Source of the DNA: Escherichia coli 042
GTDB taxonomy: Bacteria; Pseudomonadota; Gammaproteobacteria; Enterobacterales; Enterobacteriaceae
Strand: one strand, 5' to 3'
Assembly: GCF_000027125.1 (NCBI RefSeq)
Contig: NC_017626.1
Length of the DNA stretch: 64,000 bases
In this document: one piece after another, positions 4,371 through 6,270 of the stretch
Position numbering within the stretch: the stretch's first letter is position 1
How the letters are laid out: every line of letters begins with the position of its first letter
Translations under genes and position numbers: made by a program
Notes under the pieces: generated by a model
The model's database searches: none
Told to the model about the DNA's origin: nothing
The model's input: only the letters and a program-made list of their open reading frames with translations

Positions 4371-4970
4371 ATGCTCTATATCTTTGATTTAGGTAATGTG
4401 ATTGTCGATATCGACTTTAACCGTGTGCTGGGAGCCTGGAGCGATTTAACGCGTGTTCCACTGGCTACGCTTAAGAAGAGTTTCCACATGGGCGAGGCGT
4501 TTCATCAGCATGAGCGTGGGGAAATTAGCGACGAAGCGTTCGCAGAGGCGCTGTGTCATGAGATGGCCCTGCCGCTAAGCTACGAGCAGTTCTCTCACGG
4601 CTGGCAGGCGGTGTTTGTTGCGCTGCGCCCGGAAGTGATCGCCATCATGCATAAACTGCGTGAGCAGGGGCATCGCGTGGTGGTGCTTTCCAATACCAAC
4701 CGCCTGCATACCACCTTCTGGCCGGAAGAATACCCGGAAATTCGTGATGCTGCTGACCATATCTATCTGTCGCAAGATCTGGGGATGCGCAAACCTGAAG
4801 CACGAATTTATCAGCATGTTTTGCAGGCAGAAGGTTTTTCACCAGACGATACGGTCTTTTTCGACGATAACGCCGATAATATAGAAGGAGCGAATCAGCT
4901 AGGCATTACCAGTATTCTGGTGAAAGATAAAACCACCATCCCGGACTATTTCGCGAAGGTGTTATGCTAA
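4371..4970 (+). CDS. yihX: HAD-family alpha-D-glucose-1-phosphate phosphatase
   Basis: ATG preceded by AAAGGAGG; N-terminal DLGNV HAD motif I; 199 aa. Confidence 0.9.
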
Positions 4971-5836
4971 AAACCATTCAGGACAAAGCCAGGCACCGTA
5001 CCCGTCCACTATGGGCCTGGCTAAAACTACTCTGGCAACGCATTGATGAGGACAACATGACAACCCTGGCAGGTAACCTTGCCTATGTGTCGTTGCTCTC
5101 ATTAGTGCCGCTAGTTGCCGTTGTTTTTGCGCTTTTCGCCGCTTTTCCCATGTTTTCCGACGTCAGCATTCAGTTGCGTCACTTTATTTTTGCCAACTTT
5201 CTGCCTGCTACTGGCGATGTTATTCAGCGGTATATCGAACAATTTGTTGCCAATTCCAACAAGATGACCGCCGTTGGGGCGTGCGGGCTGATCGTCACGG
5301 CGTTATTGTTGATGTACTCCATCGATAGCGCGTTGAATACCATCTGGCGCAGTAAACGAGCGCGACCAAAAATTTACTCGTTTGCCGTGTACTGGATGAT
5401 TTTAACGCTGGGGCCGCTGCTGGCAGGGGCCAGTCTGGCGATCAGTTCCTATTTGCTCTCCCTGCGCTGGGCGAGCGATCTCAATACTGTCATCGACAAC
5501 GTGCTGCGTATTTTTCCGCTGCTGTTGTCGTGGATCTCCTTCTGGTTGCTGTACAGCATTGTTCCTACCATCCGCGTACCTAACCGCGACGCGATTGTCG
5601 GCGCGTTTGTCGCTGCACTCCTGTTCGAAGCAGGAAAGAAAGGTTTCGTGCTTTATATCACCATGTTCCCGTCATATCAGCTCATTTACGGCGTGCTGGC
5701 GGTGATCCCCATTCTCTTTGTTTGGGTCTACTGGACATGGTGTATCGTCTTGCTTGGCGCGGAAATTACTGTCACTCTCGGGGAATACCGCAAATTAAAA
5801 CAAGCTGCTGAACAAGAAGAAGACGACGAACCATGA
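4964..5836 (+). CDS. yihY: YihY/BrkB-family inner membrane protein
   Basis: 290-aa hydrophobic multi-pass product; overlaps the yihX stop by 7 nt. Confidence 0.85.
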
Positions 5837-6270
5837 TTGCATTAATTCAACGCGTAACCCGTGCCAGCGTCACCGTGGAGGGAGAAGTGACGGGCGAAAT
5901 TGGCGCGGGACTTTTGGTGTTATTGGGTGTCGAAAAGGATGACGACGAACAGAAAGCAAACCGTCTGTGCGAGCGTGTGCTCGGCTACCGCATCTTTAGC
6001 GATGCCGAAGGCAAGATGAATCTCAACGTGCAACAGGCGGGCGGCAGTGTACTGGTGGTTTCCCAGTTTACCCTTGCCGCAGATACCGAACGGGGGATGC
6101 GTCCAAGTTTCTCCAAAGGTGCATCACCGGATCGCGCAGAGGCGTTATATGACTATTTCGTCGAACGCTGCCGTCAGCAAGAGATGAACACGCAAACAGG
6201 ACGCTTCGCTGCGGATATGCAGGTATCGCTGGTCAATGATGGCCCCGTGACATTCTGGTTGCAGGTATGA
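5833..6270 (+). CDS. dtd: D-aminoacyl-tRNA deacylase
   Basis: 145-aa product with the conserved SQFTL motif; ATGA overlap with yihY. Confidence 0.95.

Follow-up and report, generated by a model that had tools for sequence, protein, structure and literature searches.

Short overlaps between the stop codon of one gene and the start codon of the next are widespread in Escherichia coli. Among its 2,987 co-directional gene pairs, 707 (24%) lie within −8 to +6 nt of each other, with ATGA as the commonest arrangement (Huber et al. 2023, PMC10666635), and overlapping pairs are enriched for subunits of heteromeric complexes (Huber et al., PMC6728339, PMC10666635). When five ATGA pairs native to E. coli were examined, four proved to be coupled, three strictly and one at about 60% (Huber et al. 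2019, PMC6728339). Coupling drops steeply with distance, and reinitiation is reportedly almost absent at about 20 nt (Huber et al., PMC6728339, PMC10666635). A group of genes with several such junctions is 'yihXY-dtd-yiiD', one of the four-gene operons of RegulonDB on which Esquerré et al. 2015 drew (PMC4421995). Here we describe these genes in a stretch of 64,000 nt from E. coli 042 (contig NC_017626.1). This whole stretch is referred to below as the window, and all coordinates are positions within it.

The region is nothing unusual: it is the yihX-yihY-dtd-fabY operon of E. coli, which has been catalogued before. The interval 4273-7300 finds a match, with an identity of 95-99.4%, in 5,425 of the 5,426 complete genomes of E. 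coli, and the annotation of all the matching genomes gives yihX, yihY, dtd and fabY. A preliminary description, made from the letters of the window, had proposed that three stop/start overlaps tightly couple the translation of all four genes on one transcript. The reading that we favor, with good confidence in it as a whole, is that this is the catalogued operon, that the first two overlaps couple translation, and that fabY stands outside the chain and starts at Met17 of its annotated product.

All three motifs are where they had been described, and the first two join secure gene ends. Overlap 1, ATGCTAA (4964-4970, + strand), is 7 nt long and contains the yihY ATG (4964-4966) and the yihX stop codon TAA (4968-4970). 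Overlap 2, ATGA (5833-5836, + strand), places the yihY stop codon TGA over the dtd ATG. The third motif, ATGA at 6267-6270 (+ strand), combines the dtd TGA with an in-frame ATG of the fabY (yiiD) frame; this ATG is the fabY start in the curated K-12 record but is probably not the main one. The four genes lie on the + strand. yihX (4371-4970) encodes a HAD-family glucose-1-phosphatase of 199 residues, annotated in K-12 and 118UI, with a Pfam HAD match and a match to the NCBIfam equivalog NF006991 over 1-199 of 199 residues. yihY (4964-5836) encodes an inner-membrane protein of 290 residues (PF03631, BrkB/YihY; NF002457 over 2-289), and dtd (5833-6270) a D-aminoacyl-tRNA deacylase of 145 residues (TIGR00256 over 1-145; PF02580). 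fabY (yiiD, madA; 6315-7256) encodes a protein with a GNAT domain and a malonyl-ACP (ACP, acyl carrier protein) decarboxylase hot-dog domain, whose main product would have 313 residues from Met17 and whose 329-residue annotation begins at 6267. Because the NCBIfam equivalogs cover YihX over 1-199, YihY over 2-289 and Dtd over 1-145, overlaps 1 and 2 lie between well-supported gene ends, and the list of open reading frames (ORFs) and the curated K-12 annotation agree on the same ends. The Pfam and NCBIfam assignments of the four products also bear out the earlier characterization of the operon as functionally heterogeneous.

Overlap chains are routine in this stretch, and the pattern alone is not beyond chance: in the 62 kb of K-12 that match the window, nine of 43 co-directional pairs overlap. 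What does go beyond chance, on the sequence comparisons below, is that overlaps 1 and 2 are conserved from genus to genus. As separate observations, fdhE-fdoI-fdoH (about 11200-13700, − strand) contains two consecutive ATGA overlaps, frvR-frvX-frvB has overlaps of −1 and −11, and rhaA-rhaB and cpxA-cpxR each have an ATGA overlap.

Conservation was assessed by a Dtd scan with one genome per species, which gave 80 loci from Enterobacterales, Vibrionales, Aeromonadales, Pasteurellales and Orbales. yihX and yihY overlap in 32 of 50 loci, by 7 nt (ATGYTRA) in 21, by 4 nt in five and by 1 nt in five; in other taxa, Serratia, Yersinia and Hafnia among them, a gap of 3-174 nt separates the two genes. 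Every one of the 21 loci that overlap by 7 nt keeps the MLK start of YihY. yihY and dtd overlap or abut in 49 of 65 loci, and the −4 form (ATGA or GTGA) is found in 45 of the 65, across four orders; Photobacterium, Vibrio (GTGA), Aggregatibacter and Zophobihabitans are among them.

The second line of evidence is the strength of the Shine-Dalgarno (SD) sequences. The yihX SD, AGGAGG (4360-4365, + strand), forms a duplex with the 16S rRNA 3' end (dG −11.6 kcal/mol) that ends 4 nt before the ATG, and its GGAG is invariant in the Enterobacteriaceae alignment. Against this value, the SD pairing in the window is −3.9 kcal/mol for yihY and −1.9 kcal/mol for dtd, and random 22-mers from the window average −2.6 kcal/mol. 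Across the loci, the median for yihY is −0.7 kcal/mol when the gene overlaps its neighbor and −5.8 kcal/mol when it is spaced (per-genus Mann-Whitney p = 8e-5), and for dtd it is −4.3 versus −6.1 kcal/mol (p = 0.0075), p-values that overstate independence since the loci are related. Loss of the SD in overlapping genes and its regain in spaced ones fits the prediction of termination-reinitiation (TeRe) coupling. These comparisons suggest that yihX-yihY and yihY-dtd are probably translationally coupled. Tight coupling as first proposed is thus supported, by inference, at these two junctions, for which the overlap conservation and the SD pattern both speak. It is not supported between dtd and fabY, as the probable main start of fabY lies 44 nt past the dtd stop codon and has an SD-like motif of its own.

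Besides the relatedness of the loci, two observations weigh against coupling at the overlaps. bioBF, one of the five tested ATGA pairs, is uncoupled despite a weak SD (PMC6728339), and the region 5' of dtd is A-rich and poorly structured (minimum free energy, MFE, −7.9 kcal/mol, z = +0.97) and could support SD-independent initiation. Both would agree with the view that the overlaps are neutral stop/start drift in a compact genome and that initiation at yihY and dtd does not depend on the gene upstream, A-rich unstructured leaders being one place where it might occur, as would the very high frequency of short overlaps and the drift of the yihX stop codon among genera (−7, −4, −1 and +3 to +174 nt). 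Neutral drift is, however, at odds with an SD that is lost specifically in the overlapping genes and regained when they are spaced, at both junctions, as well as with a yihY/dtd ATGA that is kept across four orders and with the coupling of four of the five tested E. coli ATGA pairs. We regard it as distinctly unlikely. Folding revealed no unusual structure at junctions 1 and 2 (z = 0.04 and 0.97). Coupling of yihY and dtd through the unmasking of a hairpin was also considered and was dropped, as both junctions fold no better than shuffled sequence.

The third junction differs from the first two. The main fabY start is probably Met17, at ATG 6315 and 44 nt past the dtd stop codon, and the third overlap is probably an artifact of annotation; published start-site profiling and the comparative analysis are the basis of this assignment, and PGAP agrees with it. 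The curated K-12 RefSeq record begins fabY at the ATGA at 6267 (329 residues), whereas PGAP, in two strains, begins it at 6315 (313 residues). In tetracycline-inhibited ribosome profiling (TetRP), yiiD is listed with a new start at +48, an ATG, in the class '1. new site' (Table S2, row 111; Nakahigashi et al. 2016, PMC4909307), which denotes signal mainly at the new site. The signals are 30.1, 22.0 and 6.1 at +48 versus 7.2, 0 and 0 at the annotated start (PMC4909307). The +48 start of fabY has therefore already been reported in that study. The TetRP table records no N-terminal peptide for yiiD (PMC4909307), and two N-terminomics supplements (TRAINSPOTTER and Salmonella riboproteogenomics) contain nothing for fabY or for the other three genes. 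FabY/MadA is a malonyl-ACP decarboxylase (PMC8666670), and the papers on FabY are silent on the operon and on the start codon. In the 329-residue form PF00583 lies at residues 31-138 and PF09500 (YiiD_C) at 174-313, with a TIGR02447 match, and the C-terminal domain matches PDB 1t82 (E = 3e-31). The GNAT and YiiD_C domains are thus both C-terminal to Met17; no full-length FabY structure and no full-length NCBIfam model was found that would anchor the N-terminus.

The comparative data point to the same start. The Met17-equivalent ATG opens a strictly conserved N-terminus, MYHLRVP or MFRLITP, in all 67 loci with fabY after dtd, and in many of these an in-frame stop codon lies a few codons 5' of it. 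A purine-rich motif (GAGAG, GGAG or AGGGG) is found 7-12 nt 5' of this ATG in 67 of 67 loci, with a median dG of −5.1 kcal/mol. In the window this SD-like motif is the conserved block ACAAGAGAGAGT (6297-6308, + strand; dG −5.1 kcal/mol), whose pairing ends 5 nt before the ATG; in Enterobacteriaceae ACAAGAGAGAGT is the only conserved block of the 44-nt spacer and is invariant or nearly so. Codon periodicity was examined in 19 Enterobacteriaceae with identical 44-nt spacing. The fractions of variable sites at codon positions 1, 2 and 3 are 0.60, 0.87 and 0.60 in the 44-nt stretch, versus 0.10, 0 and 0.75 in dtd and 0.21, 0.14 and 0.90 in fabY; lacking codon periodicity, the stretch evolves like non-coding DNA. 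A start codon over the dtd stop codon occurs only where Dtd ends GTA-TGA (or GTG/GTT-TGA). It is absent in 33 of the 67 loci, out of frame or blocked in four and usable in 30. The ATGA at 6267-6270 would be there because Dtd happens to end Val(GTA)-TGA in this clade. The only SD-like pairing available to ATG 6267 abuts the start codon, with 0-nt spacing. The 44-nt gap between the dtd stop codon and ATG 6315 itself argues against coupling of fabY to dtd, because reinitiation reportedly almost vanishes at about 20 nt.

Two observations count against placing the start of fabY at Met17: one of the three TetRP samples has some signal (7.2) at the annotated start, and in 30 of the 67 loci a frame read from 6267 meets no stop codon and keeps phase with Met17, also in length variants of 44, 47, 32, 59 and 56 nt. 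Together with the curated K-12 start, they are what can be said for the original proposal that all three junctions are functional, with FabY made from 6267 as a 329-residue protein and one ribosome stream coupling the four genes. Against that proposal stand the TetRP signal, which is mainly at +48, and the 37 loci that have no usable overlapping start, all of which keep the MYHLRVP start and the SD-like motif. The 16-codon extension, moreover, has neither codon periodicity nor amino-acid conservation, PGAP uses Met17, and ATG 6267 lies in the loop of a stable hairpin with its SD-like pairing at 0-nt spacing. Coupling across all four genes is accordingly very improbable. A weaker version, in which Met17 is the main start of FabY and a minor form longer by 16 residues is made by reinitiation at the ATGA after dtd, is unlikely. 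It would account for the small TetRP signal that one sample of the three has at the annotated start, has a precedent in the 22 of 67 inspected genes that showed signal at both sites (PMC4909307), and is compatible with a frame that, in Enterobacteriaceae and Erwiniaceae, stays open and keeps phase at every locus that has the ATG, and with the ATGA geometry, which favors reinitiation. On the other side, yiiD was classed as a new site and not as dual, the extension is unconserved as protein, no N-terminal peptide was recorded, and fabY has no entry in the two N-terminomics supplements.

The hairpin in question (6245-6293, + strand) spans the dtd stop codon and has AUGA as its apical loop. The segment 6230-6345 has an MFE of −39.6 kcal/mol (z = −2.6), and the 60 nt around the dtd stop codon give z = −5.8 (mononucleotide shuffle). 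In 25 taxa its inner 6-bp helix, CTGGTT (6255-6260) with AGCCAG (6270-6275), shows 82% pairing and a single covarying pair, a level that 16 of 500 shuffles also attained. RNAalifold did not recover the hairpin, and in the 25 taxa the full hairpin has no covariation beyond that of shuffles. The conservation of the inner helix is therefore at most suggestive, conservation as a whole falls short of significance, and the hairpin is not claimed as a conserved element. If real, it would further disfavor initiation at 6267. Rfam contains no RNA family that matches within 4100-7700.

The proposal of a single transcript is plausible and is already catalogued as a RegulonDB unit. A promoter-like footprint, whose function as a promoter is predicted, lies at 4312-4340 (+ strand) and consists of TAGCCA (4312-4317), 17 nt and TACAGT (4335-4340). 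In Enterobacteriaceae, TAGYCA-N17-TACAGT followed by the SD is the only conserved block 5' of yihX, regardless of the gene upstream, and in several species the terminator of the preceding gene lies just 5' of it. The relaxed pattern T[AGT][GT]T[CT]A-N17-TA[N]A[GA]T, whose end falls 28-34 nt ahead of the yihX ATG, is present in 41 of 61 loci versus 0.06% of shuffled sequences, a count that does not include the TAGCCA variants of the window and of Enterobacter. Two further observations concern this element. The form T[AG][GT][TC]CA-N17-TA[CGA]AGT occurs at a fixed distance 5' of yihX from Escherichia to Yersinia, Serratia and Erwinia, and the conserved TTTCCCGC just 5' of the −10 element may be more than mere spacer.

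A consensus scan found no sigma-70-like promoter on the + strand between 4273 and 7256, and no terminator-like site was found at any gene junction; the sole + strand match inside the unit is a weak one with a 5-bp stem at 6641-6654, within fabY. A terminator-like hairpin (7263-7286, + strand) begins 7 nt after the fabY stop codon and has a ten-pair G+C-rich stem followed by ATTCTTTCAG; it has an MFE of −19.7 kcal/mol (z = −1.4) and is present in K-12. Some of these features tell against a unit bounded in this way: the footprint matches the consensus at 8 of 12 positions, below the threshold of the consensus scan, and so was not called, and the T-run of the hairpin after fabY is weak, with no conservation of this hairpin in genera other than Escherichia. 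The supplements of the SMRT-Cappable-seq and mRNA-lifetime papers contain nothing for yihX, yihY, dtd or fabY, and a literature search found no paper that treats yihX, yihY and dtd together. The single-transcript model thus rests on the RegulonDB entry, the footprint and the geometry of the genes.

Alternatively, the four genes might not form one unit, with dtd, fabY or both expressed mostly from promoters within the upstream coding regions. dtd occurs without yihY in Pectobacteriaceae and Morganellaceae, 7-189 nt after yihX, and fabY lies behind a 44-nt spacer with a ribosome-binding motif for its own use, both of which agree with separate expression. No + strand sigma-70-like promoter was found within 4273-7256, however, and the overlaps between the genes would force any such promoter into coding sequence. 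RegulonDB, moreover, lists one four-gene unit, and the gene order is conserved across Enterobacterales. Separate expression seems unlikely.

In the favored reading of a single operon with two coupled junctions, transcription would start at the conserved sigma-70-like promoter about 30 nt 5' of the yihX ATG and would end at or past the hairpin just 3' of fabY. yihX would be translated de novo from its strong AGGAGG. yihY (−7) and dtd (−4), which are essentially without a usable SD in E. coli, would then be read by ribosomes that have just terminated on the gene upstream. fabY would remain outside the coupling chain and would initiate at 6315 from a conserved purine-rich SD-like motif of its own.

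The order yihX-yihY-dtd-fabY on one strand is kept in most Enterobacterales loci, and the adjacency of yihY and dtd reaches as far as Vibrionales, Pasteurellales and Orbales. Dickeya, Pectobacterium, Brenneria, Photorhabdus, Xenorhabdus, Providencia and Morganella lack the yihY that elsewhere separates yihX from dtd. In such loci of Pectobacteriaceae and Morganellaceae, where the order is yihX-dtd-fabY, the yihX-dtd gap is 7-189 nt, and dtd usually has a clear SD of its own. In the window, the operon is flanked on its 5' side by sulfoquinovose genes and csqR, and on its 3' side by yiiE, a second CopG-like gene and fdhE-fdoIHG.

The preliminary description also placed a foreign insertion right after the operon. 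A low-GC segment does start about 35 nt past fabY, with a GC content of 0.40-0.42 over 7001-11000, but to call it an insertion is imprecise. Among the 5,426 E. coli genomes, 5,376 contain parts of it and 1,061 contain its full length. K-12, which lacks 7735-9784 of the window, differs by a 2,050-bp deletion and not by a missing insertion. Further low-GC patches are at 18001-19000 (0.39), 41001-42000 (0.43) and 61001-62000 (0.44), against a background of about 0.52.

Within this low-GC islet is an intact ORF of 604 codons, from the ATG at 7672 to 9486. Strains 118UI and PCN033 show it in two pieces, a 'partial hypothetical protein' and a 'transposase'. Its product has no sequence match in Pfam, NCBIfam, PADLOC or PDB, and tblastn of the product against plasmids found no similarity to ipgD. 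An exhaustive HMMER search recovered 52 relatives, including full-length ones at 23-39% identity. In the alignment of these relatives C499, D504 and R505 of GCKSAKDRT, a CX5R phosphatase loop, are invariant. A first AlphaFold model was unusable (pLDDT 37.8); with the alignment of relatives, the pLDDT is 85.5 and the pTM is 0.86. By this predicted structure the product is an unannotated structural homolog of SopB, a Salmonella effector, and many E. coli have the gene; after SopB, it resembles the INPP4-like domain in P-Rex as well as SidP and SidF, two phosphoinositide phosphatases from Legionella. A 2025 paper describes adherent-invasive E. coli (AIEC) strains as without SopB homologs, and the relationship therefore seems not to be generally recognized. 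The same islet contains yiiE (ribbon-helix-helix, CopG family; 10164-10409) and a second small CopG-like gene (10627-10869), both on the + strand, and these two might be regulators of the SopB-like ORF. The SopB-like ORF has more potential value than the operon finding.

The operon has some practical consequences of its own. Of the 329 residues given for FabY/YiiD/MadA in the curated K-12 record and in UniProt, 16 are probably not produced under normal circumstances. This is relevant to residue numbers, which may be offset by 16 in publications on FabY/MadA, and to expression constructs of this enzyme, which is now studied in fatty-acid initiation. dtd is a housekeeping proofreading gene that, in E. 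coli, seems to lack a ribosome-binding site for itself; Dtd levels may therefore fall when yihY has polar mutations or stop codons, and this could confound yihY phenotypes. More speculatively, a yihY/dtd ATGA that lacks an SD, from Escherichia to Vibrio, could mean that Dtd is obligatorily synthesized by ribosomes finishing YihY, and this could reflect a functional or physical partnership of the two proteins, in line with the reported enrichment of overlapping pairs for subunits of complexes. YihY might, as one possibility, handle the D-amino acids released by Dtd or place the deacylase at the membrane. A literature search found no paper linking yihY and dtd within the library searched, and we consider such a partnership quite improbable.

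Compared with the described systems, little here is new: this is a catalogued operon with a very common gene arrangement. The yihXY-dtd-yiiD unit of K-12 in RegulonDB and EcoCyc has the same genes, order and junctions, and nothing substantive differs. The difference from the curated K-12 record concerns annotation, with fabY/yiiD starting there at the ATGA (329 residues) and here, in the favored assignment, at the ATG 48 nt downstream (313 residues). With the TeRe pairs (PMC6728339, PMC10666635), yihX/yihY and yihY/dtd share the overlap, the weak or absent SD and a conserved geometry. The −7 overlap of yihX and yihY is less common than overlaps of −4, −1 or −8, the products of yihX, yihY and dtd are not known as subunits of one complex, and coupling at these junctions is predicted from sequence. 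fdhE-fdoI-fdoH and frvR-frvX-frvB likewise have consecutive overlaps within one operon. The fdo genes, however, encode parts of one enzyme system, whereas the yihX operon mixes unrelated functions.

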